Below are positions 13,194 to 33,160 of a DNA stretch of 64,000 bases, in pieces (the first letter of the stretch is position 1; the number at the start of each line of letters is the position of its first letter). The notes below the pieces were generated by a model. The model was given only the letters and a program-made list of their open reading frames with translations, had not been told where the DNA came from and did no database searches. A program made the translations under genes and the position numbers. This stretch comes from Candidatus Uhrbacteria bacterium (lineage in GTDB: Bacteria > Patescibacteriota > Patescibacteriia > UBA9934). Where the stretch lies: the NCBI GenBank assembly GCA_963822405.1, contig CAWGHH010000001.1, forward strand, positions 293,373-357,372, given 5' to 3'.

Positions 13194-13910
13194 ATGTTGC
13201 TTTCGGTTGATGAGATCGCAATTAAGGAACGGGCGGACGCGCAAGCGCGAGAGATGAAGACTCGGATCGCGAAAGAAATGACGGATAAGACTATCTATTT
13301 ACCCGACGAATTTCCTGTTTCGGTTTTTATGGCCGGCTCTCCGGGTGCGGGGAAGACCGAGTCATCTCGAAACCTTATTGCGAGGTTGACTGGTGACGGT
13401 CGTGCGGTTCTGAGGATAGATACCGATGAGTTGCGTTCGTTGTTTTCGGAGTATAACGGCCATAACTCACATCTCTTCATGAGCGCAACTTCTTTTCTCG
13501 CAGACAAGATTCACGATCTTGCTTTGAAGAACGGACAGAGCTTTGTTTTTGACGGAACTCTTTCGAACATAAAACGCTCTCGCGAGAATATTGAGCGATC
13601 TCTATCGCGGATAAGGTTTGTCCAGATCGTGTATGTGTATCAAGATCCCTTATTGGCTTGGAGTTTTGTAAAGGCTCGCGAGGCAAAAGATGGGAGGGCT
13701 ATTCCAAAGAGTGATTTTATAGCGAAGTTCTTTGCCGCAAGAGAGAATGTAGATGCTTTAAAGAAGGAGTTTGGTGATAAAATCCGAGTAGATATGGTCG
13801 TGAAGAATATTGATGGTTCTGACTATAGTTACAGCGAAAATATCGACGTTGTTGACAGTCAGATTTTTGAAAAGTACACTAAAATTCAACTTGAAGGTTT
13901 GATTGACTAA
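13194..13910 (+). CDS. zeta-toxin family P-loop kinase
   Basis: 238 aa. Walker A FMAGSPGAGKTE. Conserved FVFDGTLSN (xxEGT/DGT motif of zeta/PezT UDP-GlcNAc kinases). Confidence 0.6.
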   Translation: MLLSVDEIAIKERADAQAREMKTRIAKEMTDKTIYLPDEFPVSVFMAGSPGAGKTESSRNLIARLTGDGRAVLRIDTDELRSLFSEYNGHNSHLFMSATSFLADKIHDLALKNGQSFVFDGTLSNIKRSRENIERSLSRIRFVQIVYVYQDPLLAWSFVKAREAKDGRAIPKSDFIAKFFAARENVDALKKEFGDKIRVDMVVKNIDGSDYSYSENIDVVDSQIFEKYTKIQLEGLID

Positions 13911-13915
13911 TTGCT

Positions 13916-14086
13916 ATGTCTACAGGAATTATTGCCGCTTTACGGTCTGGAGGCTCTGACCGCTCGAGCGCATTTTCAAAGTTTTTTCGCGAGGCATCTT
14001 CAACTGAAAAGAAGAAGGTTTTTCTGGATGTTGCAAAAAAAGCCAGTCAAGATCAGCGCGATGTCATGAAAGCACTTCGTCCATAG
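13916..14086 (+). CDS. small hypothetical ORF (56 aa) downstream of the zeta-toxin gene
   Basis: ATG at 13916 to TAG at 14084-14086 (MSTGIIAALRSGGSDRSS...VMKALRP). Below the ORF-track length cutoff. No recognisable motif. Confidence 0.2.
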   Translation: MSTGIIAALRSGGSDRSSAFSKFFREASSTEKKKVFLDVAKKASQDQRDVMKALRP

Positions 14087-14440
14087 AAATAAAAGGAGTC
14101 CCTGTCGGCAATGGCGGGGATTTTTGTTTTGTAAGGCTTATTACCGGAGCCGGTAAAAAGTATTCAGGATAGTTAGAGGTATTTTGCTGTAACAAAAAAA
14201 CCGATCAAATGATCGGGTGCTTTGTAGAAGTCGCGTCTCAAGAAGTCGTCCTCTTCAGCTTAGACCCGAGGAGCCCCCCGGGGAACACTGAAGCGCTTCA
14301 AGAGGTATTATTGCAACTTCGCCTCAAATATATCTCAAAATATCGGCTCCGTAAACTTACCCACAATGTACCTAATGAGCAATCTATATTACTTCATCGT
14401 CGGCAGGAACGAGAGTTGAGGAATATTCCGTTTACGCTAC

Positions 14441-14482
14441 TTGACTAGTGTAAACAAAAGTATATAATCTGTTTATACTAGC
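14441..14482 (+). promoter_or_regulatory. sigma70-like promoter (TTGACT-N16-TATAAT) with palindromic operator flanking the -10, upstream of the Fic gene
   Basis: TTGACT at 14441-14446 and TATAAT at 14463-14468. Inverted repeat TAGTGTAAACA (14446-14456) / TGTTTATACTA (14470-14480) brackets the -10. Confidence 0.45.
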
Positions 14483-14486
14483 TATT

Positions 14487-15650
14487 TTGCATAAACAAAA
14501 AAATTATATGCCAAAAAACATATTGGGTAATTTGAAGAAACATAAGAGCGGGTATCAATACCTTTCACTTTCGGCATTCCCGCCTGAGTTAAAGGAGGTG
14601 CTTTCTGGTGCATTATTAGAGAAGGCTGATTATGCACAATTTTGCTTGGGCAAGCTTTCCGGTATTACTCACCTTCTTCCGGATGTAGATTTTTTCATTT
14701 CTTCGTATATAACTAAAGACGCTACCTCTTCTTCGCAGATCGAGGGAACAAAAGCCACTATGGCCGACGCCTTTGAATATGCGGCAAATCCCAACGACGA
14801 TAATTCTGATGCCGATGATATTTCGCATTATATTTCCGCACTTCATTACGGTCTTAAGCGACTAGGCGGAGATAATTTCCCCTTCGCTTTGCGTTTTATC
14901 AAGGAGCTTCATAAAGAATTAATGAAGAATGCAAGGTCGACTCATTTTTCCGATCCAGGTGAGTTTCGCACGTCTCAAAACTGGATTGGTGGCACTACTC
15001 CAACCAATGCTAGTTTTGTGCCTCCTGCGCCGGAAGAACTCACTCGACCATTAAAAGATCTTGAGAGCTTCATACACGTCAGACACTTTCATCCGGTACT
15101 TCAAGCCGGCTTGCTTCATGCACAGTTCGAAACCATTCACCCATTTTTGGACGGTAACGGAAGAACGGGCCGGTTATTGATTACATTCTATTTGATTCAG
15201 CAAAGACTTCTTGAGAGACCGGTGCTGTTTTTGTCTTCTTACTTTAAGAAGCATCAGAAGCTCTACTATCAGAGGCTTTCCGGATACCACCATGGTGAAA
15301 TCGGTCCATGGCTTGATTTCTTTCTTGATGGAATTATCGAGACTGCAGAGCAGGCTATTTCGGTATCTATCGCCGTTACTGCCTTGAGAGATAAGGATTT
15401 AAAAACGGTAGCGACTCTCGGAAAATCAGTCTCTGAAGTTTCTTCGAATATTCTTCAGCGCTTATACCAGAATCCGATCGTGTCTACAGCGCTAATAGAA
15501 CAGTGGACCGGTTACACTAGACCAGGTGTTATCAAAATCATTGATAAGTTGATGAAAGTGGGAATTCTAGAACTTTATCGCAAGGGGGAGGGTACGAAAC
15601 CGTCTGTGTATATTCATCGTGAATATGTAAACTTGTTTGCTGAAAAGTAG
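14487..15650 (+). CDS. Fic family protein (AMPylase/phosphocholine-transferase fold) with C-terminal winged-helix domain
   Basis: 387 aa. Fic motif HPFLDGNGRTGRLLITFYL. The start may be the second ATG at 14508 (MPKNILG). Confidence 0.8.
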   Translation: MHKQKNYMPKNILGNLKKHKSGYQYLSLSAFPPELKEVLSGALLEKADYAQFCLGKLSGITHLLPDVDFFISSYITKDATSSSQIEGTKATMADAFEYAANPNDDNSDADDISHYISALHYGLKRLGGDNFPFALRFIKELHKELMKNARSTHFSDPGEFRTSQNWIGGTTPTNASFVPPAPEELTRPLKDLESFIHVRHFHPVLQAGLLHAQFETIHPFLDGNGRTGRLLITFYLIQQRLLERPVLFLSSYFKKHQKLYYQRLSGYHHGEIGPWLDFFLDGIIETAEQAISVSIAVTALRDKDLKTVATLGKSVSEVSSNILQRLYQNPIVSTALIEQWTGYTRPGVIKIIDKLMKVGILELYRKGEGTKPSVYIHREYVNLFAEK

Positions 15651-15710
15651 GAATGTGCAATTAGTGCACATTCTAAGCAAACAATCCGATCTTCCGACCG
15701 GATTTTTGTT

Positions 15711-16244
15711 TTAAGGTGAATTCCGAATTTTCGCCCTAATTTGTTTATGGTTTGGGATTGTTTGTTCAACCAGTTTCCAAAACCTCACCGAGTGATTCAT
15801 CTGCGCCAAATGACACAGTTCATGGACGACAATATAGTCCACTTGTTCCTGTGTCAGATGAACAATCCGATAATTAAAACTCAGCGTTCCCGTACTGGTA
15901 CAACTACCCCAACGAGTTTTCTGATTTCTGATAGATACTTTCTTCCAGGACAACTTATAGAATTTATTGAAATAGTCGAGTCTCGACTCCACAAGTTCAA
16001 GCGCCCTATCTTTTAGCCGACCATAATCAGCCCTCGTCCCGCCACGTAGTAGACTTGGCGGTCGAGCCTTGGCTTTGGCGACGTGTTCAACTATCCACGC
16101 CGACTTCTGTTCGACGAACTGATTGATCATCCATGCTGGCACGCGCTTGTGTGCGGTGACCGTACACGCCCCATCCGCGCCAATGCGAATACGTATCCCA
16201 CGCGAGCGGGGGTGGCGTTTTAGTGCGAACTCGACGGAGGGCAT
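15711..16244 (-). CDS. DUF45/YgjP-like HExxH metal-dependent hydrolase
   Basis: 177 aa. VVHELCHLAQMNHSVRFWKLV matches the DUF45 signature. Divergent from hsdM. Confidence 0.65.
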   Translation of the reverse strand: MPSVEFALKRHPRSRGIRIRIGADGACTVTAHKRVPAWMINQFVEQKSAWIVEHVAKAKARPPSLLRGGTRADYGRLKDRALELVESRLDYFNKFYKLSWKKVSIRNQKTRWGSCTSTGTLSFNYRIVHLTQEQVDYIVVHELCHLAQMNHSVRFWKLVEQTIPNHKQIRAKIRNSP

Positions 16245-16361: not shown

Positions 16362-17921
16362 ATGACCAAAGAACAAGAACGTTCAGAGCTGCACCGTGCC
16401 ATTTGGCAAATTGCTAATGATCTTCGAGGAAGCGTGGATGGGTGGGATTTTAAGCAATATGTGCTTGGAATGCTTTTTTATCGGTTTATCAGCGAGAATT
16501 TAACGAATTACATTAATTCCGAGGAGCGTCGCACGGGAAAGAAGGATTTTGATTACGCCACACTTTCAGATAAGGAGGCTGAATTTGGTCGAGCCGATAC
16601 GGTGCAGGAGAAAGGTTTTTATATTCCGCCGAGGGATCTTTTTGTTAACGTTCGCAGTAAAGCTAGAAATAACCCCAATCTCAACGAATCACTGGTAAAT
16701 GTTTTTCGAGATATTGAGAGTTCCGCTAAGGGATTTGAAAGTGAAGACGATATTAAGGGATTATTTCAGGATCTCGACGTTAACTCAGCCAAGCTTGGTA
16801 ATACTGTAGAACAACGAAATCAAAAGCTTGTAAAGCTTCTTGAGGCTATTGGCGACCTTCGGCTTGGTAACTATTCGGACAATAGTATTGATGCTTTCGG
16901 CGACGCATATGAGTTCCTCATGACCATGTATGCATCGAGTGCAGGAAAGTCCGGGGGAGAGTTCTATACCCCGCAGGAAGTGAGCGAGCTTCTTGCCGAA
17001 ATTACCACTGTCGGCAAAAAAGAAGTAAATAAAGTGTATGACCCAGCGTGCGGATCTGGTTCTTTGCTTTTGAAGTTTGCCAAGGTGCTCGGAAAAGAAA
17101 ATGTTCGACAAGGTTTCTATGGTCAGGAGATTAATCTCACCACCTATAACCTCTGTCGTATCAACATGTTCTTGCACGACATTAACTACAATAATTTTGA
17201 CATTGCTCTTGGCGACACGTTGACCGATCCAAAGCATTGGGACGAAGAACCTTTTGACGCCATTGTTTCTAACCCGCCTTACTCAATTAACTGGGAAGGC
17301 GACGCTAATCCGCTCCTCATTAATGATCCTCGATTTGCGCCCGCCGGTGTACTCGCGCCAAAGAGTAAGGCTGATCTCGCGTTTACCATGCACATGCTTT
17401 CATGGCTTTCTACGAGTGGCACCGCTGCGATTGTTGAGTTCCCTGGTGTTCTCTATCGTGGTGGTGCAGAGCAGAAAATCAGAAAATATCTTGTAGACAA
17501 TAACTACGTTGATGCCGTTATTCAGCTTCCGCCTGATTTGTTCTTTGGTACTACTATTGCTACCTGTATTATCGTAATCAAGAAGAGCAAGAAAGATAAT
17601 AAAGTGCTATTTATTGATGCTTCAGCTGAATTTGCGAGAGGCGGGAACAAAAATAAGCTGTCAGATGTTAATCGAAAGAAAATATTGGACGCTTTCATTT
17701 CTCGTCAGGACGCTGAATATTTCGCAAAACTCGTCGACAACCAGGTAGTAACAGAAAACGATTACAACATCGCCGTATCAAGTTATGTGGTAGCGGAGGA
17801 TACACGGGAGGTCATCGATATCACAGAGCTCAATAAGAAAATTACCGGCATTGTTGCGCGCGAGAATGAGTTGCGCATTGCAATTGACGAGATTGTGGCG
17901 GATATTGAGGGAGTGAAATAG
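16362..17921 (+). CDS. hsdM: type I restriction-modification system DNA methyltransferase subunit
   Basis: 519 aa. N-terminal HsdM_N. Motif I DPACGSGSLL. Motif IV SNPPYS (N6-adenine MTase). Confidence 0.9.
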   Translation: MTKEQERSELHRAIWQIANDLRGSVDGWDFKQYVLGMLFYRFISENLTNYINSEERRTGKKDFDYATLSDKEAEFGRADTVQEKGFYIPPRDLFVNVRSKARNNPNLNESLVNVFRDIESSAKGFESEDDIKGLFQDLDVNSAKLGNTVEQRNQKLVKLLEAIGDLRLGNYSDNSIDAFGDAYEFLMTMYASSAGKSGGEFYTPQEVSELLAEITTVGKKEVNKVYDPACGSGSLLLKFAKVLGKENVRQGFYGQEINLTTYNLCRINMFLHDINYNNFDIALGDTLTDPKHWDEEPFDAIVSNPPYSINWEGDANPLLINDPRFAPAGVLAPKSKADLAFTMHMLSWLSTSGTAAIVEFPGVLYRGGAEQKIRKYLVDNNYVDAVIQLPPDLFFGTTIATCIIVIKKSKKDNKVLFIDASAEFARGGNKNKLSDVNRKKILDAFISRQDAEYFAKLVDNQVVTENDYNIAVSSYVVAEDTREVIDITELNKKITGIVARENELRIAIDEIVADIEGVK

Positions 17922-17924
17922 CCT

Positions 17925-18419
17925 ATGGAAGATCAACCAAACAATGAAATCGTTATCTATACCGGGGACGGCGGTCAACCCGTTATTCAGGTGCGTATTG
18001 TGGGGGAGACAGTCTGGCTAACTCAGGCGCAGCTGGCTGAGCTTTTCGGCACAACCAAGCAGAATATTAGCCTTCACATACAAAATATTTTTGAGGAGGG
18101 CGAGCTGGCTCCCCGAGCAACTGTCAAGGAATACTTGATAGTTCAAACAGAGGGAAATAGAGAGGTTTCCCGCCAAATAGATCATTACAATCTCGACCTC
18201 ATTATATCCGTTGGATATCGAATAAAATCCCAAATTGCGACACATTTTAGACAATGGGCCACGGCGCGGCTTCGGGAATATATTGTCAAAGGATTTACGA
18301 TGGATGACGAGCGTTTGGAAAACACTGGTGGCCAGTTGCGCAGATTCCTATATAAGTATAACTTCGAGCTAATCACCCATTTTTTTCAATGTTTTCCACG
18401 CCTTCTTCGTTGTGGATAA
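17925..18419 (+). CDS. RhuM-family virulence-protein N-terminal fragment (truncated paralog of the 29947-30912 RhuM-Doc protein)
   Basis: 164 aa. DLIISVGYRIKSQIATHFRQWATARLREYIVKGFTMDDERL aligns with AIISVGYRVNSVTATKFRQWATKTLRQHITKGYTINPKVI at 29947+. Lacks the C-terminal half. Confidence 0.5.
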   Translation: MEDQPNNEIVIYTGDGGQPVIQVRIVGETVWLTQAQLAELFGTTKQNISLHIQNIFEEGELAPRATVKEYLIVQTEGNREVSRQIDHYNLDLIISVGYRIKSQIATHFRQWATARLREYIVKGFTMDDERLENTGGQLRRFLYKYNFELITHFFQCFPRLLRCG

Positions 18420-18443: not shown

Positions 18444-19787
18444 ATGGCTCTCGACTGGCAACAGTTTGGATTAAAGAGAAACCCCTTCGATACACTCCCT
18501 TTAGTTGAGGGAGGAGATTTACCTATCGAGAAGGCCTTCGTCGGCAGAATGGATGAAAGAGATATGATTGATTCGTTATTCGAACAGGAAACGCACTTGT
18601 GTCTAATTGTCGCTGGCGAGGTGGGGGTTGGAAAGACTAGCTTGGTGAATTTCCAAAAATTCATTTGGAAATATAATAAATCAAAATTGCTATTCTCTTC
18701 GAGACGCGAAATTGAAGCTAGCAAGTACTTGTTAGATAAGAGAAACTTTTTACTTGAGATCATCGGTTCGGTACTTCGAGAGCTCCAATTGTTAGACCTA
18801 AATCTTTTGAAGGACCCCCTTCTCCAAAAAATAAAAACTGTTGTCGAAGTCAGTCAAAGCATAGCTATTTCTGGGGGCGCAAGCGCATTCGGATTTGGTC
18901 TGGATGCCAGCCACTCAAAAGAATTCACAGCACCTGTGGAACTGACCGTTTCTACACTTGAAGGATATTTACGGGATCTGGTAGGTTTTATAAAAGAGAC
19001 ACGGATAGGTGAATATAAGTATTCTGGACTCATCGTGCACGTTAATAATTTTGATGTTGTACTGAAGTCGGATGAGGGTGGCGTGAGAGAGTTTTTTGAC
19101 GAAATACGAGATATCTTACAGACCCCCGACGTGTTTTTCATATTTATTGGCCCATCAAACTTTTATGAAAAAGTGCTTGTACCTCTGCAGCGTGTGAGAG
19201 GCATTTTTTATCATCTTCCGCTCATAATTAAACCTATGAGCAAAACTGATCTTCGCACAGCGCTTGACGATCGAATGGAATTGCTCAAATCAGAGAACGT
19301 GTCAGTTTATGTAAAACCTTTTGAAGAGAAGCTGGTCTTTGAACTTTATGATTTATACGAGGGCGATGTTCGTTCTATCTTGAACGCACTTGTTTCCATC
19401 CTTCACGAATATAGCGACCGCCTCGCGAAGCCTCTTACAGTTAAGGAAGGCTTGCTGCTTTTGTGCCGTGAATTATGGAGAACGATTGAAAAGAACGCTT
19501 CGCCTACCGATGAACAAAAACAGATTCTACGGTTCATAGCGAATCAAAAAAATCCCGTCTCGAATAAAGAGATCGCTGATGCTCTCGGCAAGCAAGAAAG
19601 CAATATGTCAGCATATTATTTGAAGCCGTTAAAAGACGCCGGAATTATTGAGCTGAAAGAGCAGGTCGGCACTCGCAAGCTCTGGGGAATCTCCCAGCGA
19701 TATAGTATTCTTTCGAGATTTAGTGAGCTGCAGGATGGGGCTGTGACAGATTCGTCGAAGGATGTAGCACAGCTGCGCTTAATATAG
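18444..19787 (+). CDS. ORC/Cdc6-like AAA+ ATPase with C-terminal winged-helix domain
   Basis: 447 aa. FVGRMDERDMI (arch-ATPase FVGRxxE). Walker A AGEVGVGKTSL. Walker B-like LIVHVNNFD. Sensor FIFIGPSNF. C-terminal wHTH (ILRFIANQKNPVSNKEIADALG...). Confidence 0.55.
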   Translation: MALDWQQFGLKRNPFDTLPLVEGGDLPIEKAFVGRMDERDMIDSLFEQETHLCLIVAGEVGVGKTSLVNFQKFIWKYNKSKLLFSSRREIEASKYLLDKRNFLLEIIGSVLRELQLLDLNLLKDPLLQKIKTVVEVSQSIAISGGASAFGFGLDASHSKEFTAPVELTVSTLEGYLRDLVGFIKETRIGEYKYSGLIVHVNNFDVVLKSDEGGVREFFDEIRDILQTPDVFFIFIGPSNFYEKVLVPLQRVRGIFYHLPLIIKPMSKTDLRTALDDRMELLKSENVSVYVKPFEEKLVFELYDLYEGDVRSILNALVSILHEYSDRLAKPLTVKEGLLLLCRELWRTIEKNASPTDEQKQILRFIANQKNPVSNKEIADALGKQESNMSAYYLKPLKDAGIIELKEQVGTRKLWGISQRYSILSRFSELQDGAVTDSSKDVAQLRLI

Positions 19788-19916: not shown

Positions 19917-20474
19917 ATGTTTGAAAATATTTCGACTTGGTTTGTTGCGTTGCCGATTGGCGCTTGTTTAGGGTGGGTAGCCGATAGATTGCTTGGTCCA
20001 ACTGCGGATGCATTTGGTGCAGGATTACTTAATGTTTTTTCACGATGGTGGAATAAAAAAAGCGAGGCGATTACCGACTATCATAAACTCGAAGACTTGG
20101 TGCGTAAAAATCATATGTCTAATGGACATGGTCGATTCAATGAGCAAAAAACATACATGCACGATCGAGAAATAAATTTAACGTTACTAAAATACGGTTC
20201 ATTTATTCGTCGAGCTATAAAAGAAGCATGGATTGAGAGTGCTACAATAAATAACTATGATGAGAGTGATATATTTTTTGCGGGGATGAATTTGCTTTTC
20301 CCGCAACTTGGCAAGAGTGACATATCAACCATTTATGAAAAGTTTAAGGATAACAACCAGGCATCCTTGCGGTGGTGGCTTGAGCAGATGGAAGAACGAA
20401 AGCCGAAATTTCTGTCACTCGATGTTTTAAAATATTTGCGAACAGAACAAGAGGAACGGAACAAAATAATATGA
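19917..20474 (+). CDS. hypothetical protein with N-terminal TM helix
   Basis: 185 aa. WFVALPIGACLGWVADRLL hydrophobic segment. Very AT-rich. 4-bp overlap with the downstream nuclease gene. Confidence 0.35.
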   Translation: MFENISTWFVALPIGACLGWVADRLLGPTADAFGAGLLNVFSRWWNKKSEAITDYHKLEDLVRKNHMSNGHGRFNEQKTYMHDREINLTLLKYGSFIRRAIKEAWIESATINNYDESDIFFAGMNLLFPQLGKSDISTIYEKFKDNNQASLRWWLEQMEERKPKFLSLDVLKYLRTEQEERNKII

Positions 20475-21532
20475 ATCAAGCAATAACTACAAAATCGATA
20501 GGAAGAGGAATTGCTGAAGTAGGTGCAATTGTTTTGGAGGAAAAACCTTTATCAAAACTTATATTTAAGCCACAAATTCATAATCGTGGAATAAGAGGCT
20601 TTATAATTAGACAAAAAAGAAGTAATAAAAGTGAAGAATGGAAAGATGAACAATCAATAAAACTGAAAGATCTCGCTGATGTTGATGGAGTAAATTTTGA
20701 AATACCAACAGAAGGAATATTGAACTTATTTATTGGAATAAAGAAACTCGCTGTTATTTTAAGAGAAAATGGTGTTGAATACGGAGAAAATCATTATGAA
20801 ATTGTAGATCCTAATTCTGTTATTATAACAGATGAAAATAAAGCTCAGTTTATAAAGAAAATACTTGAAGCGGGATATGAAGAAGAAACTTGGGAAAGCA
20901 TTGTTGAATTAAATCCTGATTTAGCAACAAAACTTTCCTATGCAAGAATTCAAATCGAGAGGAAAAAAGTTTTAGATGAACTTCAAGAAAGATTTAAAAA
21001 TGATTATTCTGAAACAAAAGGAGATGATTCGTGGCAAAATTGGATTTCAAAAAATAATTGGCTTTTTGGTGTGAATTACAGACAACCGATAGAAAAAGCA
21101 AAAATAAATTTATTTGGAATAATGCCAGATTTCTTATATCCGACCATTGATGGTTTTGTTGATGTTTTAGAAATAAAACTTCCTAAAGATGAGGTTTTAA
21201 TGGAAGATGTAGGCCATAAAGGATCATGGAAATGGACACCTGAAACAAATAGTGCAATCGGACAGGTGGTAAATTATTTAACAGAAATTGATAGATTAAG
21301 ATTTGAGAACGAAAATACAATTCGCAACGAAACAACTGATAAAGTTTTGTTTCTAAAACCACGCGCCTTTATTCTTATTGGAAATAGCCAAGAGTGGGAT
21401 GATCAAAAAAAAGAAGCGTTAAGAAAATTAAATTATTATTTACATAATATCGAAGTGCTTACTTATAAAGATTTATTAGATAGAGGAAATCAATTTTTAA
21501 ATAGTCGTAATTTATCCATTAATAAATTATGA
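20471..21532 (+). CDS. PD-(D/E)xK nuclease-fold protein, possibly DUF4263/Shedu(SduA)-like
   Basis: 353 aa. NWLFGVNYRQ...GIMPDFLYPTIDGFVDVLEIKLPKD gives PD...D...E-I-K core motifs. Very AT-rich. 4-bp overlaps with both neighbours (ATGA at both junctions). Confidence 0.45.
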   Translation: MNQAITTKSIGRGIAEVGAIVLEEKPLSKLIFKPQIHNRGIRGFIIRQKRSNKSEEWKDEQSIKLKDLADVDGVNFEIPTEGILNLFIGIKKLAVILRENGVEYGENHYEIVDPNSVIITDENKAQFIKKILEAGYEEETWESIVELNPDLATKLSYARIQIERKKVLDELQERFKNDYSETKGDDSWQNWISKNNWLFGVNYRQPIEKAKINLFGIMPDFLYPTIDGFVDVLEIKLPKDEVLMEDVGHKGSWKWTPETNSAIGQVVNYLTEIDRLRFENENTIRNETTDKVLFLKPRAFILIGNSQEWDDQKKEALRKLNYYLHNIEVLTYKDLLDRGNQFLNSRNLSINKL

Positions 21533-22776
21533 CAAACAATCGATCAAAAATCGAAAAATTAATTTCTGAACTCTGCCCGAACGGGGTGGAGTTTAAGGAG
21601 TTGGGTGAACTTGGTGATTTTTATGGAGGACTTACTGGAAAAAGTAAAGAGGATTTTAGCAATGGCAACGCAAAATTTATCACTTACATGAATATTTTTT
21701 CTAATATTGCCGTTGATACTGATGTAAATATTTTTGTAAAAATGGAGCAGGAGGAAAAGCAAAATAGAATTCAATACGGCGACGTTTTGTTTACAGGTTC
21801 GTCAGAAACACCGGACGAGTGTGGAATGTCCTCTGTTTTAACAAAGAAAATTGATGAGCCGCTGTATCTAAACAGTTTCTGTTTCGGCTTTCGCCCGAAT
21901 GACAAGAATTTGTTGTTGCCCGAGTTTTCTAAATATTTGTTTAGAGATGAACAGATGAGAAAACAGATTGCGAAAACTGCCAGTGGAGTGACGAGATTTA
22001 ATGTCTCAAAAAAGCGTTTTGCAAAAATGACAATCCCTCTCCCACCCCTTGCAATCCAAAAAGAAATCGTCCGTGTGCTAGACTCTTTCACGGAGCTTGA
22101 GGCGGAGCTTGAGGCGGAGCTTGAGGCGGAGCTTGAGGCAAGGAAGAGTCAATATGAACACTATCGTACTGAGCTTTTGACGTTTGGGGTTGGGGTTGAG
22201 CTTAAGGAGCTGGGTGATGTAGCGGGTTATTCCAAGCTTCGAATAGGTGCCACCGAATTAAATTGCGATAATTTTGTAGGTGTAGATAATTTACTTACCA
22301 ACAAACAGGGAAAGACAGTTTCAAGTTATGTACCAACAGCTGGTAAACTGACTCGTTTCGAAACAGGTGACATTCTGCTCGGAAATATTCGTCCATACCT
22401 GAAGAAGATTTGGCTGGCAACGAATGAGGGAGGGGCGAGTGGCGATGTTTTGGTTGTTAGTATCAAGGACGAGAAAAGAAAATACTTGCTATCGGAGTTT
22501 TTGTATTACATGCTTTCTTCGGATAATTTTTTCAATTACGACATGCAGCATGCGAAAGGTGCAAAAATGCCACGTGGAAATAAGGATGCTATTCTACAGT
22601 TTAAAGTCCCAATTCCGTCGATGGCGGAGCAAGAACGTATCGTGTCGATCCTCGACAAATTCGATGCTTTGGTGAACGATATCTCTGTTGGTCTGCCGGC
22701 GGAGATTAGGGCCAGAAGACAGCAGTATGAGTATTATCGGAATAAGCTATTGAGCTTTAGGGAGAAAACTAAATAG
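21529..22776 (+). CDS. hsdS: type I restriction-modification system specificity subunit (two TRDs)
   Basis: 415 aa. Central conserved LPPLAIQKEIVRVLDSFTELEA...RKSQYEHYRTELL and C-terminal IPSMAEQERIVSILDKFDALVNDISVGLPAEIRARRQQYEYYRNKLLSF, the standard HsdS coiled-coil conserved regions. Confidence 0.85.
   Translation: MTNNRSKIEKLISELCPNGVEFKELGELGDFYGGLTGKSKEDFSNGNAKFITYMNIFSNIAVDTDVNIFVKMEQEEKQNRIQYGDVLFTGSSETPDECGMSSVLTKKIDEPLYLNSFCFGFRPNDKNLLLPEFSKYLFRDEQMRKQIAKTASGVTRFNVSKKRFAKMTIPLPPLAIQKEIVRVLDSFTELEAELEAELEAELEARKSQYEHYRTELLTFGVGVELKELGDVAGYSKLRIGATELNCDNFVGVDNLLTNKQGKTVSSYVPTAGKLTRFETGDILLGNIRPYLKKIWLATNEGGASGDVLVVSIKDEKRKYLLSEFLYYMLSSDNFFNYDMQHAKGAKMPRGNKDAILQFKVPIPSMAEQERIVSILDKFDALVNDISVGLPAEIRARRQQYEYYRNKLLSFREKTK
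22093..22140. repeat. perfect 12-bp tandem repeat x4 (GAGCTTGAGGCG; last copy ends GCA) in the central spacer of hsdS, encoding (ELEA)4
   Basis: Read directly: gagcttgaggcg gagcttgaggcg gagcttgaggcg gagcttgaggca. Confidence 0.85.
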
Positions 22777-22845: not shown

Positions 22846-25800
22846 ATGAAAATGAAAAAATATAACCTTGTCGCTGAGGGCGCGCAGAGTACTGTTGTTT
22901 CGGAATATACGCCGGATAATAAGAGGGCTTCGCATTACCAGAGTGAGGCGGAGCTTGAGCGGGCGTTTGTGAAGCAGCTTGAGGGGCAGGCGTATGAATA
23001 TGTCACCATTACTTCGGAGGAGGATCTCGTTATTAATTTGAGAAAACAGCTCGAGAAGCTAAATGATTTTTCGTTTACAGATGCGGAGTGGGATAGATTT
23101 TTTAAGAACGAGATTGCCAATCCCAATCAGAGTATCGAGGAGAAAACGAAGACCATTCAGGAGGATCATGTGAAGATACTTACACGTGATGACGGAGCGG
23201 TGAAGAATATTTATCTTCTGAAGAAAGATAACATTCACAACAATTCACTCCAGGTCATCAATCAATACGCTACTGACGAGGGGCAGCGAAGTAATCGGTA
23301 TGATGTAACGGTCTTGGTGAACGGGCTACCGATGGTGCATATTGAGCTGAAGCGTCGTGGAGTGGCCATTCAGGAGGCGTTCAATCAGATTAATCGGTAT
23401 CACCGTGAAAGTTTTTGGGCCGCAGCTGGACTTTTTGAATATGTGCAGCTGTTTGTTATTTCTAACGGTACGCACACAAAGTATTACAGTAACACTACTC
23501 GCGCTCAGCATGTAAAAGATAGTGTCGGGGGTGCGGCAAAGAAAGGAAAAAGGACAAGTAATAGTTTTGAATTTACCAGCTGGTGGGCAGACGCCACTAA
23601 TCGTCCCATCACCGATTTAATGGACTTCGCCAAAACCTTTTTTGCAAAGCACGCGTTGCTGAATATCTTGACTCGATATTGTGTCTTCACGAGTGACCAC
23701 TTGTTGCTAGTAATGCGTCCATACCAAATTGTCGCGACCGAACGCATTCTTAGCCGCATTGAAATCAGCACGAATTATAGGAAGCTGGGAACCGTTGAGG
23801 CTGGTGGCTATGTTTGGCACACCACCGGATCAGGAAAGACTTTAACAAGCTTTAAGACGGCTCAGTTGGCAAGCAAACTGCCTCATGTAGACAAAGTGCT
23901 TTTCGTGGTAGACCGCAAAGATTTGGATTACCAAACCATGCAGGAGTATGACAAGTTTGAGAAGGGGGCGGCGAATAGCAACGCGAGCACCGCGATTCTT
24001 AAGCGTCAGATGGAAGATGCGAATTCGCGCATCATCGTGACCACTATTCAGAAGCTTGATCGCTTCATCGGCCGAAATTCTAAACACGAAATCTTTGATG
24101 GCCACGTCGTGATTATTTTTGACGAATGTCACCGTTCACAGTTTGGTGATATGCATACCGCAATCACGAAGGCATTTAAGAATTACCATCTCTTCGGTTT
24201 TACTGGCACGCCAATCTTTGCGGCCAACGCTTCTGCCGGTGGTCATCCTGATTTGAGGACAACAGAACAGGCCTTTGGCGAGAAACTTCATACCTACACC
24301 ATCGTCGATGCTATTGCGGATAAAAATGTTTTGCCATTTAAGGTTGATTACGTTTCTACGGTTCGTGAAGCTGAGAACATTGAGGATAAAGCAGTGAACG
24401 ATATTGACCGTGAGGCCGTTTTGTCCGCACCGGAACGATTATCGAATATTGTCGAGTATATTCGGGAACATTTCGACCAGAAAACAAAGCGAAACAGCTT
24501 CTATCAGTTGAAAGACAGGCGATTGGCTGGGTTTAATTCGATCTTTGCTGTTTCTTCTATTGAAATGGCCAAGAGATACTACGCTGAGTTCAAGAAGCAA
24601 CTCGCTGGTGTCCCAGGTGACAAGCAATTAAAAATCGCAACTATCTTTAGTTTTGGAGTGAATGATGAAGATGCTGATGGGATGATCGATGAAAATTCGG
24701 AAGACACGAGCGGTCTAGATGTGAGCTCACGTGATTTCTTGGAGAATGCGATCAAAGATTACAATGTCATGTTCGGAGCCTCGTACGACACCTCTTCTGA
24801 TAAATTTCAGAACTACTATAAGGACGTGAGTCAACGCGTGAAAAATCGAGAGATAGATGTACTCATCGTGGTGAACATGTTCTTGACCGGTTTTGATGCG
24901 ACAACGTTGAACACTTTGTGGGTTGATAAGAATCTTCGATTGCATGGATTGGTTCAGGCGTTTTCGCGCACGAACCGCATTCTTAATAGCGTTAAGACGT
25001 TCGGAAACATCGTTTGTTTCCGTAACCTAGAGAAGGCGACGAATGAGGCGATTGCGTTATTTGGTGACAAAGAAGCTAGCGGTATCGTTCTTCTTAAGGC
25101 GTACGCTGATTATTACAATGGCTATAAGAATGACGGCACAGAGGTGCGCGGTTACGAAAGTCTGGTAAAGGAATTGCAGGAAAAGTTCCCCGTTGGCGAG
25201 AGAATTCTTGGTGAACAGGATCGGAAGGACTTTATTAGGTTATATGGTGCGATTTTGCGTGTTCGGAATATCCTCACCACATTCGATGAATTTGTGGGTA
25301 ATGAGATTCTGACCGAGCGCGACGTGCAGGACTATCACAGTGCATATATTGATCTATACAATGAATTCCGCAAGCAAGTGGAGGGGGAGAAGGAGAACGT
25401 GAATGATGATGTAGTTTTTGAAATGGAGTTGATTAAACAAATCGAGATCAATATTGATTATGTGATCGGACTCATTAAAAAGTATCACGAAGGTCACACG
25501 AAGGATCGAGAGCTACTCGTTGATATTAACAAGGCGATTGATTCTAGTGTTGAATTACGTAATAAAAAAGATCTTATCAATCAATTCATCACCAGACTTG
25601 ATGTTCATTCTGTCGTTGAAGATGACTGGCAGAAGTTTGTGGATGAGAAGAAAGTTGAGGAGCTGGATCAGATTATCTCCAATGAAGGGCTCGACCACGA
25701 CGCAACGTATAAATTTGTGCAAAATGCGTTCCGTAACGGGGATATCGTCGGTACCGGAACCGCAATCGCCAAAATAATACCGCCGGTAACACGTTTTTCT

Positions 25801-25902
25801 CCGGGCGGTGAACGTACAAAGAAGCGCGAGAGCGTATTGGGGAAATTAACACATTTCTTTGAGCGATTCTTTGATATTTCGGGTGGTAAGTTTTCAGATT
25901 GA
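22846..25902 (+). CDS. hsdR: type I restriction enzyme R subunit (helicase/endonuclease)
   Basis: 1018 aa. N-terminal PD-(D/E)xK region (VLVNGLPMVHIELK). Walker A HTTGSGKTLTS. DEAH-like VIIFDECHRSQ. Helicase C domain. Confidence 0.9.
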   Translation: MKMKKYNLVAEGAQSTVVSEYTPDNKRASHYQSEAELERAFVKQLEGQAYEYVTITSEEDLVINLRKQLEKLNDFSFTDAEWDRFFKNEIANPNQSIEEKTKTIQEDHVKILTRDDGAVKNIYLLKKDNIHNNSLQVINQYATDEGQRSNRYDVTVLVNGLPMVHIELKRRGVAIQEAFNQINRYHRESFWAAAGLFEYVQLFVISNGTHTKYYSNTTRAQHVKDSVGGAAKKGKRTSNSFEFTSWWADATNRPITDLMDFAKTFFAKHALLNILTRYCVFTSDHLLLVMRPYQIVATERILSRIEISTNYRKLGTVEAGGYVWHTTGSGKTLTSFKTAQLASKLPHVDKVLFVVDRKDLDYQTMQEYDKFEKGAANSNASTAILKRQMEDANSRIIVTTIQKLDRFIGRNSKHEIFDGHVVIIFDECHRSQFGDMHTAITKAFKNYHLFGFTGTPIFAANASAGGHPDLRTTEQAFGEKLHTYTIVDAIADKNVLPFKVDYVSTVREAENIEDKAVNDIDREAVLSAPERLSNIVEYIREHFDQKTKRNSFYQLKDRRLAGFNSIFAVSSIEMAKRYYAEFKKQLAGVPGDKQLKIATIFSFGVNDEDADGMIDENSEDTSGLDVSSRDFLENAIKDYNVMFGASYDTSSDKFQNYYKDVSQRVKNREIDVLIVVNMFLTGFDATTLNTLWVDKNLRLHGLVQAFSRTNRILNSVKTFGNIVCFRNLEKATNEAIALFGDKEASGIVLLKAYADYYNGYKNDGTEVRGYESLVKELQEKFPVGERILGEQDRKDFIRLYGAILRVRNILTTFDEFVGNEILTERDVQDYHSAYIDLYNEFRKQVEGEKENVNDDVVFEMELIKQIEINIDYVIGLIKKYHEGHTKDRELLVDINKAIDSSVELRNKKDLINQFITRLDVHSVVEDDWQKFVDEKKVEELDQIISNEGLDHDATYKFVQNAFRNGDIVGTGTAIAKIIPPVTRFSPGGERTKKRESVLGKLTHFFERFFDISGGKFSD

Positions 25903-25995: not shown

Positions 25996-26532
25996 ATGAC
26001 AAATTACGAACCAATCACAATTATTATATATTTATGTCAGGTTGTATTAGGATTGATTACAATTTTGTTGATGCTATATGGTTTGCGCAAGATTCAAAAG
26101 GTTTTTCCGATGATTGAAACTGTATATACGGCAAAAACACGATCTAATGGTCAGAATGGTCCGATTGTTTCTGATGCCCTTGGAAGTATTATGGTTACAT
26201 TGGCTACTCAAATTGCCGGTGAAGATTTGAATAATGGAGTAATGAGAATAATGACAAAGGGAACGTACTCGCCTCCTATCGTTTCCAGTGGCCTGGTGAA
26301 AAGTGGTCCCGGTTATCTCTTAGGTTTTGTGATAAACTCAGTAATCTCAGGCGCTACATTGAGAATCCTGGATGGTGCCGATAATTCCGGTGCAGCTATT
26401 TTTGATACGATGACTTTTACAGCAATGTTTAATGGGCCCAAAGTAATTTCGTTGCCTGCGGCGGTAGAATTTAATAATGGATGTTATTTTTGTGTCGATG
26501 GTACAATTTCAATTACTCCAATATTGAGTTAG
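25996..26532 (+). CDS. hypothetical membrane-anchored protein (island cargo)
   Basis: 178 aa. N-terminal TM (IIIYLCQVVLGLITILLMLYGL). AT-rich. No recognisable motif. Confidence 0.3.
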   Translation: MTNYEPITIIIYLCQVVLGLITILLMLYGLRKIQKVFPMIETVYTAKTRSNGQNGPIVSDALGSIMVTLATQIAGEDLNNGVMRIMTKGTYSPPIVSSGLVKSGPGYLLGFVINSVISGATLRILDGADNSGAAIFDTMTFTAMFNGPKVISLPAAVEFNNGCYFCVDGTISITPILS

Positions 26533-26634
26533 TCTAAAATTTATTTTGTAAGAGTTGTATAACCCAAAAAACAAAACTCCTTTTATATTAAAATCAATAA
26601 AGTGAAAAGAGAGGAAATGGTTGCTACATAACAT

Positions 26635-27228
26635 ATGCCCGAAATAATCTACATCCTCATCAATGAAGCCATGCCTGGTTATGTGAAGATAGGCATGACA
26701 ACTAATCTAGAACAGCGAATTCGTTCGCTTGATACAACTGGTGTTCCGTTGCCGTTTGAATGTTTTTACGCGTGTACGGTGAAGGATTGTACGTTTGTTG
26801 AGCGTCAGTTGCATGATGCATTTTTGGATCATCGAGTGCGCTCTAGCAGAGAATTCTTTGAGATATCACCCGAACGTGCCGTCGCAGCCCTGAAGCTTGC
26901 CGAAATAGAGAACATTACGCCAAAGAAGGACTTTGTGGAGACGCAGGAGGATCAGCAGGCGCTTAACGAAGCTAGAACAAGACGAGCGGTGTTTAATTTT
27001 GGCTTGGTAAATATTCCGGTTGGCGCAGAGCTAACGTTTAGTCGGGATGATAATCAGAAAGTAACCGTTATAGACAATAGGTCAGTCATGTTTAACGGAG
27101 AAATCACTAGTTTGTCAGCTTCGGCGCAAGAGTTACTTGGGTACCCGTACCAAGTACAGGGAACGGTTTATTGGTTGTATGAAGGGGAAACACTCGATGA
27201 AAGAAGGAAAAGATTTGAAAGCGGGTAG
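26635..27228 (+). CDS. T5orf172 (GIY-YIG-like) domain protein
   Basis: 197 aa. IYILINEAMPGYVKIGMTTNLEQRIRSL...ERQLHDAF...REFFEIS matches the T5orf172 pattern. Confidence 0.6.
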   Translation: MPEIIYILINEAMPGYVKIGMTTNLEQRIRSLDTTGVPLPFECFYACTVKDCTFVERQLHDAFLDHRVRSSREFFEISPERAVAALKLAEIENITPKKDFVETQEDQQALNEARTRRAVFNFGLVNIPVGAELTFSRDDNQKVTVIDNRSVMFNGEITSLSASAQELLGYPYQVQGTVYWLYEGETLDERRKRFESG

Positions 27229-27492
27229 ATGATCGCTAAACTTATTGAGGCTCGAGATGAAGATGCTTGGCGGATTAAGCTTGCTGATCTCACGGATAAC
27301 TTGAGGCAGTGTCACGGCCTATCGCTCGATAACCGACGATTCATGATTGAAGTGAAAGCCACGCTGATGCTTCGCCTAGCTAAGACTATGCCATTTAGTC
27401 GAATGATCACGGAGGAACCGCCATTTGTTCAGCCGAGCATCCTTGCTCTCCAGACAGAGATGGAAAAACAACGGGCGGGGTTGGGTCAATAA
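27229..27492 (+). CDS. small hypothetical protein
   Basis: 87-aa ORF overlapping the upstream stop codon (ATGA). No motif. Confidence 0.25.
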   Translation: MIAKLIEARDEDAWRIKLADLTDNLRQCHGLSLDNRRFMIEVKATLMLRLAKTMPFSRMITEEPPFVQPSILALQTEMEKQRAGLGQ

Positions 27493-27514
27493 ATTGATTT
27501 TATTCACGCTTATA

Positions 27515-27650
27515 GCCCCAAAACCGTGAAAAAGTAGTAAAAAATGGCATTCTGTCACGGTTATGGCTCGTAAATCGTGACAAAAGTGCATTTTATTGCA
27601 TTCTGTCACGGTTATGTTGCCAAAACCGTGACAGTAGTGTATAATGCTGA
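27515..27650 (+). promoter_or_regulatory. promoter (TTGCCA-N17-TATAAT) with multiple CGTGACA-core operator-like repeats upstream of the second Fic gene
   Basis: 19-mer GCATTCTGTCACGGTTATG occurs exactly twice (27547-27565 and 27599-27617). Inverted partner AAAACCGTGACAG (27622-27634) sits in the spacer. A further half-site AAATCGTGACAAAAG lies at 27573-27587. TATAAT at 27640-27645. Confidence 0.45.
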
Positions 27651-27653
27651 TAT

Positions 27654-28538
27654 ATGGCAAAAACGTTGGGTTCTTATAAAAAGATCAGTATATTGCGCGA
27701 ACGGTACTATCAGGTAGCAACGGGTAAAGATGCACTTTTGAAGCTTATTGCTGAGGTGGAAGTGGCGGAGCAGGTTTATAACTCAAATGCTATTGAGAAT
27801 AGCACTCTTAGTCTTGAAGAGACGGAAAAGATTCTTTTGCAAATTGATCTGGATCGGTACGTGGAAGGACGGGAGATTTTTGAGGCTAAGAACTTGGCGC
27901 GTGTTGTGGGCTATATTGATCACAAGGCGAAAGAGCAGGAATTGACGCTTGATGTCATGTTGTCACTTCATCAGATGCTGATCTTGAATATTCAAGATGA
28001 TATTGCTGGTAGATTCAGGAACGAAAAAGAATTTGTTCGCGTGGGCAGCTATATCGCGCCTAACCCGAAAGAAGTGGTTGGGCTTCTTGAAAAGATGCTC
28101 GCCGAATACAATGCTTCAAGTCACGAGAATATTATTAAGCGTATCGCTCGCCTACATTTAACATTTGAGCATATCCATCCATTTGTTGACGGGAATGGTC
28201 GCATCGGTCGAGTAATCAGTAATTATCTTCTTCTCCGAGAAGGCTTCGTGCCGATCAATATTAAGTTTATCGATCGGGACATGTACTATGAAGCATTTAA
28301 GGAATTCGATACTAAAGGAGAGACTAGGGTGATGGAGGAAATTGTTGGAAAGGCGTTGACTAATAGTTATCACAAACGACTTGCGTATCTAGAGGGGGCG
28401 GAAATAATGACACTAACTGAATACGGAAAAAAGAATAAGATTTCACGGACGAATTTAGTGAATAAAGCTAGCCGTCAAACAATCGAGGCGTTTTTGGAAA
28501 AAGGTATTTGGAAAATCGGAGTCAAACATGGCGTATAG
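27654..28538 (+). CDS. Fic family protein
   Basis: 294 aa. Fic motif HPFVDGNGRIGRVISNYLL. Confidence 0.8.
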   Translation: MAKTLGSYKKISILRERYYQVATGKDALLKLIAEVEVAEQVYNSNAIENSTLSLEETEKILLQIDLDRYVEGREIFEAKNLARVVGYIDHKAKEQELTLDVMLSLHQMLILNIQDDIAGRFRNEKEFVRVGSYIAPNPKEVVGLLEKMLAEYNASSHENIIKRIARLHLTFEHIHPFVDGNGRIGRVISNYLLLREGFVPINIKFIDRDMYYEAFKEFDTKGETRVMEEIVGKALTNSYHKRLAYLEGAEIMTLTEYGKKNKISRTNLVNKASRQTIEAFLEKGIWKIGVKHGV

Positions 28539-28551
28539 TGTTGGTTAGCCT

Positions 28552-29916
28552 ATGCTCTCCAAATCCTCTTTCATGCAGTTTCTCCGGTGTAGTTGCGAGC
28601 TGTGGCTGTATAAGCAACGGCCGGATTTGGCGCCGGAGTTTGATGAGGCGACCTTGAGAGTTTTTGCGACGGGTAATGAGGTAGACAGCTGGGCGCAGAA
28701 GCTGTACCCCAAGGCGGTGAATGTGATGGGGTTTGGGAAGAGGGGAGCGGAGGATATGAAGAAGGCGATTGCTCTTGGCGCAAAGGCGTTATTACAGCCG
28801 ACTTTTATTGTGAATGCGTTTGGGGGAGAGATTACCTGTAGAGCTGACATCATGAAGAAAAATAGTGACGATTCTTGGGATCTTCTAGAGGTAAAAAGCA
28901 CCACGGAGGTGAAGAAAGAGCACATCATGGATATGGCGTTTCAACGTATAGTCCTTGAGGAAGCCGGATTGAAGATTCGAAAGACTCTTCACGTCCACAT
29001 CGACAATCAATATGTTCGAGCGGGAGAAATTGAGCCAGAGAAGTTGTTCGCGCGTACAGATGTAACTCATGAGGTTGAGGAGCTATTGCCATTGTGTCGA
29101 AAAGAAATTCCGCGTGCGCTCTCTGTGCTCGATTGGGGGAAGGAACCGAACCTCGACATCATCAATAACTGTACTGACCCGGAGAAATGCGAATTCCGAG
29201 CATGTATTTTACAGGCGATGGGGGAGGAGGACGAGACGTACAGGATTAGTCCTGCCAACCCAAATTTGAAGATTGATAAGACGGCCATTAAAGAAGAGCT
29301 CGACAGCCTAACTTATCCTCTCTACTTTTTAGATTACGAAACATGGAATCCTGCTATTCCGGCTTTTGATGGCTACAAGCCGTATCAGCAGTGCGTGTTT
29401 CAATATTCAATCCATATTTTGAAATCACCAAAGGCCAAGCTAGAACACGTTGAGGTTTTGGTTGACGAGTTAGTTGATCCGGCGCCGATTATTGCAAAAG
29501 CGCTGGCCGAGCATATCGGTCCGACGGGCAGTGTCATTTCTTGGAACATGATTTTCGAGGCTTCTCGAAATGAAGAACTCGGCGACCTCGTTCCTGAATA
29601 TGCTGATCAACTACGAAGCATTAACGAACGGATGTTCGACCTCATGATGATCGTGAAAAAGGGTTACTACAAAGACGCACGCTTTGGGGGCAGTGCATCC
29701 TTGAAAAAAGTTCTCCCAGTTCTGTGTCCCGAACTTTCTTACGACTCTCTGGCTATCCATGAAGGTGGCACCGCCTCCGCCAGCTGGCCTGTCCTCACGA
29801 ACCCGTCGACCACGCCTGCCGACAAAGCTCAACTCCGCAAAGACATGCTCGCTTATTGCGAACTAGATACATTGGCGATGGTGGAAATTTATAAGAAGTT
29901 TTTAACGATTGTGTAA
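28552..29916 (+). CDS. DUF2779-like protein: N-terminal Cas4/RecB-type PD-(D/E)xK nuclease fused to C-terminal DEDDy-type 3'-5' exonuclease-like domain
   Basis: 454 aa. Cys-rich N-terminus. RADIMKKNSDDSWDLLEVKST (D...E-V-K). C-terminal LYFLDYETWNP (Exo I-like D-x-E) and YCELDTLAMVEIY (Y-x3-D). Confidence 0.45.
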   Translation: MLSKSSFMQFLRCSCELWLYKQRPDLAPEFDEATLRVFATGNEVDSWAQKLYPKAVNVMGFGKRGAEDMKKAIALGAKALLQPTFIVNAFGGEITCRADIMKKNSDDSWDLLEVKSTTEVKKEHIMDMAFQRIVLEEAGLKIRKTLHVHIDNQYVRAGEIEPEKLFARTDVTHEVEELLPLCRKEIPRALSVLDWGKEPNLDIINNCTDPEKCEFRACILQAMGEEDETYRISPANPNLKIDKTAIKEELDSLTYPLYFLDYETWNPAIPAFDGYKPYQQCVFQYSIHILKSPKAKLEHVEVLVDELVDPAPIIAKALAEHIGPTGSVISWNMIFEASRNEELGDLVPEYADQLRSINERMFDLMMIVKKGYYKDARFGGSASLKKVLPVLCPELSYDSLAIHEGGTASASWPVLTNPSTTPADKAQLRKDMLAYCELDTLAMVEIYKKFLTIV

Positions 29917-29946
29917 GTTTTGAGTTTTGGTATATTGATCCTTGAT

Positions 29947-33026: not shown

Positions 33027-33160
33027 AAAAATAACGCCTCTTTGGGCGTCTAATAATAATTATCTGCCCCTTTCGGGCTGGAGTTAGCACCTTCTCGAGA
33101 GAGGGTTGCTGCCGTGTCATTGGGCCAGGACCCTCGACGGACTCTTGATATATTCAATTG
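33027..33160 (-). promoter_or_regulatory. SAM-I (S-box) riboswitch in the metK leader
   Basis: Minus-strand transcript reads UAUCAAGAGUCCGUCGAGGGUCCUGGCCCAAUGACACGGCAGCAACC...GAAGGUGCUAACUCCAGCCCGAAAGGGGCAGAUAA. This matches the S-box consensus elements: UCAAGAG, GAGGGA-like, UGGCCC, AUGA, GCAACC, GGUGCUAA, AGAUAA. A hairpin GACGCC-CAAA-GAGGCGU plus U-tract abuts the AUG and sequesters a GAGG Shine-Dalgarno. Confidence 0.7.

Follow-up and report, generated by a model that had tools for sequence, protein, structure and literature searches.

The question raised by the locus described here is what a protein of 353 amino acids (aa) does among the genes of a Type I restriction-modification (R-M) operon, and whether it works together with that operon or only travels with it. 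The gene lies at positions 20471-21532 of a 64,000-nucleotide stretch of a Candidatus Uhrbacteria genome, and the whole of this stretch is referred to as the window. A reading made from the DNA letters alone (the sequence-only reading) had proposed a Shedu-like nuclease with a DUF4263 domain. The analysis identifies the open reading frame (ORF) as an intact Shedu gene, sduA, of the type previously described in Bacillus cereus. We put at about 85% the probability that sduA encodes a functional single-protein Shedu nuclease of the B. cereus-like Type 1A, with a presumably autoinhibited mechanism, carried as cargo of the R-M operon.

Identity and domain architecture of SduA

The frame was found where it had been read, on the plus strand, with an ATG at 20471, a stop codon at 21530-21532 and 353 translated codons. 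The hmmscan search suggested by the sequence-only reading returned the expected domain, PF14082 (SduA_C/DUF4263), with 74.3 bits against a cut-off of 27 (E 1.7e-20; residues 186-336, profile positions 5-159 of 159), and with it PF21407 (SduA_N), with 37.4 bits against a cut-off of 27 (E 3e-9; residues 12-105). Seventeen SduA models of PADLOC also match the window protein. The best of them is PDLC00390 (1.7e-95; residues 1-344 against profile positions 1-335 of 339), and window SduA belongs to this subfamily with no difference of substance; no NCBIfam model matches the protein. An identical protein is already deposited in public collections, where its two Pfam domains are precomputed; homologues of 57-61% identity (P0050, P0053, P0072) bear the name ‘Shedu anti-phage system protein SduA domain-containing protein’. 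Being already recognised by Pfam, PADLOC and NCBI naming, window SduA is a known kind of gene in an ordinary setting. No experimental study of any PDLC00390-type member was found in the literature examined.

Comparison with solved structures leads to the same family. A sequence search of the PDB retrieves B. cereus SduA, 8TI8 (4.4e-9 with the single sequence and 1.6e-19 with a 25-sequence profile), and residues 10-339 of window SduA align with residues 12-373 of that protein. The sequence match to Escherichia coli SduA, 8PS4 (E 1e-4), covers the nuclease domain only (query residues 159-343 and 184-346). A full-length AlphaFold2 model, built with 25 homologues, has a mean predicted local distance difference test (pLDDT) score of 69.6, with 80-91 in the nuclease core. 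When this model was searched with Foldseek, the matches with E ≤ 0.001 were nine Shedu chains only (8PS4/8PS5/8TI8/8TI9), at probability 1.00; the E. coli structures 8PS4 and 8PS5 stand at the top (E 3.6e-7), and the Shedu chains are followed by weak matches to the PD-(D/E)xK enzymes N.BspD6I and FokI. The restriction-endonuclease-like fold, with its expected α-β-β-β-α-β core, is present in window SduA and is closest to the solved Shedu structures. The assignment to the Shedu/DUF4263 family, first made without any database search, is thus supported by Pfam, PADLOC, the PDB searches and Foldseek.

Three regions follow one another in the protein. The first is the N-terminal regulatory or sensor domain (residues 1-105; 20471-20785, plus strand), defined by PF21407 and by a model that appears PC4/Whirly/PUR-like. 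When residues 1-112 were modelled alone (pLDDT 68.9), strands were predicted at residues 20-25, 28-37, 40-49 and 58-64, and a helix at 80-99; this modelled β-β-β-β-α topology is the unit of PC4/Whirly proteins. The Foldseek neighbours of the domain by itself are the T5 PC4 homologue 4bg7 (probability 0.94), human PURA, a Burkholderia PC4 homologue, MoSub1, PC4 and Arabidopsis WHY2. The SduA_N match and these fold neighbours together place window SduA in Type 1A of Gu et al., which is the largest Shedu class with 1,684 of 7,687 proteins (10.1101/2023.08.10.552793). The sequence-only reading had described the N-terminal half as low-complexity and variable, and this description has to be abandoned. 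The lowest entropy of any 12-residue segment is 2.36 bits, the two halves of SduA have 3.94 and 4.05 bits, and these values rule out a low-complexity N-terminus; the region is a conserved folded domain.

The second region is a predicted helical linker (about residues 106-185; 20786-21025, plus strand), which by model and alignment would be the counterpart of the linker domain described for B. cereus Shedu (10.1101/2023.08.10.552793) and pairs with B. cereus residues ~118-204. Its helices are modelled at residues 124-133, 138-147 and 149-176, and pLDDT is low at 103-137. The third region is the DUF4263/SduA_C PD-(D/E)xK nuclease domain (residues 186-336; 21026-21478, plus strand). The order of its elements in the model is a helix at 188-199, strands at 221-224, 230-235, 243-245 and 253-255, a helix at 257-288 and a strand at 299-302, and Foldseek gives target-normalised template modelling (TM) scores of 0.64-0.66 against the nuclease-domain octamer 8TI9. 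The same order of SduA_N, helical linker and DUF4263 is observed in SduA of B. cereus B4264 (8TI8/8TI9; Gu et al., 10.1101/2023.08.10.552793, Mol Cell 2025).

Active-site residues, selection and mechanism

The peptide NWLFGVNYRQ and the motif peptide that follows it, GIMPDFLYPTIDGFVDVLEIKLPKD, were located at residues 196-205 and 216-240, respectively, both in the C-terminal half as had been stated. The spacing read from them, PD followed by an acidic residue and then E-x-K, corresponds to P219-D220 (codons 21125-21130), D227/D231 and E234-I-K236, and it is not a chance arrangement, given the invariant residues and the 74 bits of the PF14082 match. For comparison with B. cereus SduA, the chain numbering of 8TI8 in the PDB is that of Gu et al. 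plus 2, which was verified on V248/D249/Y252 and E264/K266. The motif II loop (21095-21130, plus strand), assigned by B. cereus alignment and by conservation, contains K209/K211 and catalytic D220 (codon 21128-21130), which pairs with B. cereus D249. Motif III, E234-I-K236 (21170-21178, plus strand; E234 at 21170-21172, K236 at 21176-21178), is aligned with B. cereus E264/K266, and motif IV, Q265 (21263-21265, plus strand), with Q295; the codons of both were verified.

Conservation was assessed in a set of 25 homologues with 55-86% identity and a mean column identity of 68%. D220, E234, K236 and Q265 are invariant in all of them. In the DNA-binding loop, K209 pairs with B. cereus K238 and is retained by 90% or more of the 25 sequences, while K211 adjoins the position of K241. 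In the N-terminal domain, R29, which is essential in B. cereus, pairs with K29, and position 29 is lysine or arginine in 25 of 25 sequences. The basic residues equivalent to those that B. cereus Shedu needs (K29; K209/K211) are therefore conserved, and window SduA resembles the B. cereus protein in motifs II-IV, in the loop lysine and in the N-terminal basic residue. Residues 209-217 and 226-228 are modelled at pLDDT below 50, with the rest of the nuclease domain at 80-91; the poorly modelled motif II loop fits the mobile loop described for B. cereus (10.1101/2023.08.10.552793).

The gene is under purifying selection throughout. The Nei-Gojobori ratio of nonsynonymous to synonymous substitution rates (dN/dS), obtained with three homologues of ~80-84% nucleotide identity, is 0.10-0.20 for the whole of sduA, and by domain 0.09-0.34 (N-terminal), 0.06-0.23 (linker) and 0.06-0.13 (nuclease). 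Window SduA is intact at 353 aa, where the length typical of the family is 345-367 aa among 120 homologues listed. The AT-richness ascribed to the N-terminal half by the sequence-only reading is real but not specific to that half: it is uniform across sduA, with a GC content of 0.292 in each half and of 0.158 at third codon positions (GC3). The corresponding GC content is 0.41-0.45 for the hsd genes and 0.47 for the window. GC content of sduA is also below that of the flanks in 21 of 22 related loci, as expected of a gene moving between genomes, and sduA is a horizontally (recently) acquired, AT-rich cargo gene.

These results bear on the possibility that sduA is a remnant, either decaying or without a defence function, such as a NucS/EndoMS-like repair nuclease or an incipient pseudogene. 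Outside Shedu, the fold has its nearest structural relative in EndoMS (10.1101/2023.08.10.552793), and the adjacent truncated rhuM gene indicates that the locus has undergone rearrangements. Against this, the frame is intact and of family-typical length, the alignable catalytic residues of motifs II-IV are invariant, dN/dS is 0.1-0.2, and the gene, foreign in composition, shares a defence island with genes for Fic, zeta toxin, Type I R-M and RhuM. A remnant is accordingly regarded as very improbable.

For the favoured assignment, that of a B. cereus-like Type 1A nuclease, the domain architecture, the intact motifs II-IV, the purifying selection and the foreign origin come directly from the window gene, and the remaining steps would follow by analogy with the B. 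cereus work. By homology, SduA would form a homotetramer through its nuclease domains, in which D220 is kept on the mobile loop, away from the active site, and the dimerised N-terminal PC4/Whirly-like domains hold the enzyme off. Taking away the N-terminal domains renders the B. cereus enzyme toxic and active (10.1101/2023.08.10.552793). In window SduA, the trigger bound by the N-terminal domains may be a nucleic acid specific to infection; the likeliest candidates are single-stranded DNA and the end of a linear phage genome that has been injected or is replicating. On binding of this nucleic acid the D220 loop would swing in, and sequence-nonspecific nicking or double-strand cleavage of DNA would follow and halt the replication of the phage.

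A different sensing step is offered by the DNA-end clamp of E. coli SduA (Loeff et al., 8PS4/8PS5, Cell 2025), which would require neither allosteric release nor an octamer. The E. coli and window proteins have the DUF4263 PD-(D/E)xK domain in common, and both are Type I in the scheme of Loeff et al., with a long N-terminal region. The E. coli structures lead the Foldseek list, the octamer tyrosines of the B. cereus protein are not conserved in window SduA, and end sensing was also proposed as the B. cereus trigger by Gu et al. However, the sequence similarity to E. coli SduA is limited to the nuclease domain; the N-terminal regions lack detectable homology, with alignment beginning at residue 159 or later, and the end-clamp mechanism therefore cannot be assumed. 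This is in contrast to the B. cereus protein, which aligns from residue 10 and has SduA_N in common with window SduA, and the N-terminal model resembles the PC4/PUR single-strand binders. An E. coli-like mechanism as a whole is considered unlikely, while its end clamp is a live alternative for the sensing step, though the N-terminal domains are not homologous.

Several points weigh against assigning window SduA a B. cereus-like mechanism. The two proteins are 16-18% identical in structural alignments and window SduA is ~30 residues shorter, so that the mechanism would be carried over by analogy; the activating ligand is not known even for B. cereus Shedu (Gu et al.). The full-length model is only moderately confident, at its mean pLDDT of 69.6. 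The matches to the N-terminal fold are not statistically significant (best E 0.033, TM 0.3-0.45), and the modelled PC4/Whirly resemblance is weak evidence on its own. Motif I appears shifted or ambiguous in the alignment: an acidic residue is present, which may be either D185, the variable residue that HMMER pairs with E204 of the B. cereus protein, or E181, an invariant residue four positions upstream. The octamer tyrosines Y312/Y315 of B. cereus are replaced, Y312 by E281 or a gap and Y315 by I284, which makes activation via an octamer doubtful in window SduA; Gu et al. leave open which Shedu families use octamers (10.1101/2023.08.10.552793), and octamer activation belongs to the B. cereus mechanism and does not define the family.

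sduA in the Type I R-M operon

Unlike the B. cereus gene, sduA of the window is located inside a Type I R-M operon, in which the order of genes is hsdM, a rhuM fragment, a 447-aa gene, orf185, sduA, hsdS and hsdR. The genes of the R-M system proper are hsdM (16362-17921, plus strand; HsdM_N and N6_Mtase, 4e-114), hsdS (21529-22776, plus strand; Methylase_S, 1.9e-36) and hsdR (22846-25902, plus strand; HSDR_N, SWI2_SNF2, T1R_D3-like and EcoR124_C). ATGA overlaps join the stop codon of orf185 to the start codon of sduA, and the stop codon of sduA to the start codon of hsdS. A terminator scan inside the operon found no convincing one, and promoter- and terminator-like sites within the operon are no commoner than in shuffled sequence; sduA is probably co-transcribed with the Type I R-M operon.

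The insertion of sduA can be traced on sduA-free backbones (loci L035-L039), which have 72-76% DNA identity to hsdM, orf185 and hsdR of the window. In direct alignment, homology with the sduA-free backbone stops exactly at the sduA start codon. From the start codon on, the window tracks sduA of L030 and L033, whose upstream DNA is unrelated to that of the window. On the downstream side, homology with L033 and L001 extends from sduA ~60-80 bases into hsdS, and the N-terminus encoded by hsdS is conserved with that of L038 and L035. The breaks in homology on both sides indicate an insertion between orf185 and hsdS that brought in sduA and a short part of the conserved beginning of hsdS. An apparent homology between the 5' ends of sduA and of hsdS of L038, produced by a blastn run-on to 20549, was discarded, as the alignment reveals an AT-rich chance extension past the start codon.

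The gene directly upstream, orf185 (185 aa; 19917-20474, plus strand), is matched by no model of Pfam, PADLOC or NCBIfam, and among 5.8 billion protein clusters just three are homologous to it. All three come from Type I R-M operons that belong to the same lineage and lack sduA, in the order hsdM-orf183-hsdS-hsdR or hsdM-hsdS-orf187-hsdR, and orf185 is absent at 33 of 33 other sduA loci. It is accessory to this lineage of Type I R-M systems, a rare R-M-embedded gene that belongs to the R-M backbone. A role as Shedu partner was considered by comparison with KELShedu, in which the DUF4263 nuclease is preceded by a small, tightly joined gene, as at the window locus, and the 12.6 kDa KELA binds the nuclease (PMC12577705). 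Unlike KELA, orf185 is unrelated in size, absent at the other sduA loci and found without sduA in its three contexts; this distribution rejects the pairing, and the window locus is not a two-component Shedu.

The relatives of window SduA are widespread and strongly conserved. A search of the subfamily gave 434 matches, with members in Bacteroidota, Ignavibacteria, Planctomycetota, Patescibacteria, Gammaproteobacteria and one Heimdallarchaeota bin. In the reference genomes, hsdM, hsdS or hsdR directly adjoins sduA in 11 of 28 loci, which is a lower bound given that several contigs are short. The three distinct close relatives whose flanks were examined (five loci, protein identity 79-83%) also carry adjoining hsd genes, and with the window counted hsd adjacency is observed in 15 of 32 distinct loci (~47%). 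The slot varies between loci: sduA precedes hsdS in the window, L014 and L033 and follows it in L030, L032, L008 and L010; the HsdR of the host operon varies as well, belonging to the EcoR124_C or T1RH-like_C family. At the non-hsd loci, which make up about half of the relatives, the neighbours are GmrSD, AbiEii or AlwI genes, or unrelated genes. We also note that in an 82%-identical relative the hsdS gene after sduA is split into parts of 235 and 128 aa (L033 1527-2760; L034 1520-2753), and that a Bro-N-like gene and a DUF559 gene lie between it and hsdR. The R-M system of this relative may be inactivated, while its sduA is still intact.

PrrC, an anticodon nuclease encoded within the EcoprrI Type I R-M operon, is under the physical control of the R-M complex and provides the pattern for a coupling of SduA to its host system. 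SduA could be kept latent by the Hsd complex and freed when a phage anti-restriction protein attacks this complex, or be triggered by DNA ends or single strands made by HsdR. The position of sduA within an hsd operon, with translational-coupling overlaps on both sides, agrees with such a coupling, as does the order hsdM-hsdS-sduA-hsdR of L030 and L032, which matches prrA-prrB-prrC-prrD. The share of loci with hsd adjacency (15 of 32) also greatly exceeds that of Shedu genes inside R-M systems of any type, for which Gu et al. report 602 of 5,499 (~11%; 10.1101/2023.08.10.552793).

The same slots are, however, used by unrelated genes, namely those of RhuM, the 447-aa ATPase, orf185 and TgvAB of Vibrio cholerae, the last being embedded in the Type I R-M operon of VPI-2 (PMC12409362). 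Embedding of defence genes in Type I R-M operons is a known theme and has been used generically to find such genes, under the name ‘guilt-by-embedding’ in PADLOC (PMC12988326). PrrC in EcoprrI, TgvAB (PMC12409362) and the guilt-by-embedding candidates (PMC12988326) all fill slots among hsdM, hsdS and hsdR, as sduA does. The sduA slot lies before or after hsdS, the host HsdR proteins come from different families, about half of the relatives are outside any hsd operon, and the characterised Shedu proteins act alone. A functional coupling of window SduA to its host R-M system in the manner of PrrC is judged improbable. A further proposal, in which the ~350-aa PDLC00390-type subfamily would have adapted to Type I R-M operons as a back-up that senses R-M failure or by-products (such as an anti-restriction attack, or DNA ends or single strands from HsdR) and not phage DNA itself, seems a little less probable still; if true, such an R-M-adapted SduA subfamily would be for Shedu what PrrC is in EcoprrI.

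Simple hitch-hiking for co-expression and co-transfer is a more economical explanation than coupling, given that the slot and the R-M family vary and that many relatives stand alone. As an independent Type 1A nuclease, SduA would act as a second defence layer beside Type I R-M. The independence is suggested by the half or so of the relatives that occur outside hsd operons and by B. cereus Shedu, which works alone in a heterologous host (10.1101/2023.08.10.552793).

The defence island and the place of sduA in the Shedu family

The Type I R-M operon lies within an island of lower GC content that extends from pheT to ~31 kb. Before the operon (13194-16244), genes of the island encode a zeta toxin (13194-13910), a Fic protein (14487-15650) and a YgjP-like metallopeptidase (15711-16244, minus strand); after it (25996-30912) follow those of a T5orf172/GIY-YIG-like protein (26635-27228), a second Fic protein (27654-28538) and a DUF2779/Cas4-like protein (28552-29916). 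The rhuM fragment that follows hsdM (164 aa; 17925-18419, plus strand) matches positions 1-73 of 252 in the RhuM profile and ~4-136 of 336 in PDC-S05. It is without the C-terminal Fic-like half, which was perhaps displaced on arrival of the 447-aa gene, and a full-length RhuM-Fic gene (330 aa; 29920-30912, plus strand) is present in the same island, 11.5 kb downstream of the fragment.

The 447-aa protein (18444-19787, plus strand) combines a weak N-terminal AAA_16/nSTAND1-like P-loop with a C-terminal winged helix-turn-helix domain that resembles that of Csa3/CARF3. Its family is large (270 matches), conserved in length at ~450 aa and annotated only as ‘hypothetical’. Members are also embedded in the order hsdM-hsdS-X-hsdR-YgjP in L042-L044 and stand alone elsewhere, and a 49%-identical paralogue (P0233) is encoded elsewhere in the same genome. 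Membership in PDC-S27 was rejected, the PADLOC matches being weak and partial (2.5e-5 on the winged helix-turn-helix and 0.011 on the P-loop). The protein is possibly a single-gene defence candidate.

Three RNA features were also noted. The Rfam motif DUF3800-V RNA (14226-14321, minus strand) scores 55.4 bits against a gathering threshold of 37.4 and is situated between the zeta-toxin and Fic genes. A S-adenosylmethionine (SAM) riboswitch (33058-33154, minus strand; 59.3 bits) lies upstream of a minus-strand gene at 32070-33026. About 120 bases further upstream, ARAGORN reports a ‘tRNA-???’ with a two-base anticodon (33273-33348, minus strand), which is probably a false positive.

For the Shedu family, sduA of the window adds little by itself: it is a further intact representative, and publications of 2023-2025 have already covered the structure and mechanism of the family. 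Modestly useful is the arrangement of the locus, a clean natural case in which a Type I R-M operon has taken in a defence gene without a visible seam and for which a comparable backbone without sduA is available. With ~47% of the loci resident in hsd operons against ~11% of all Shedu genes in R-M systems, these relatives form a reasonable test case for whether embedded genes cooperate with the R-M system that hosts them.

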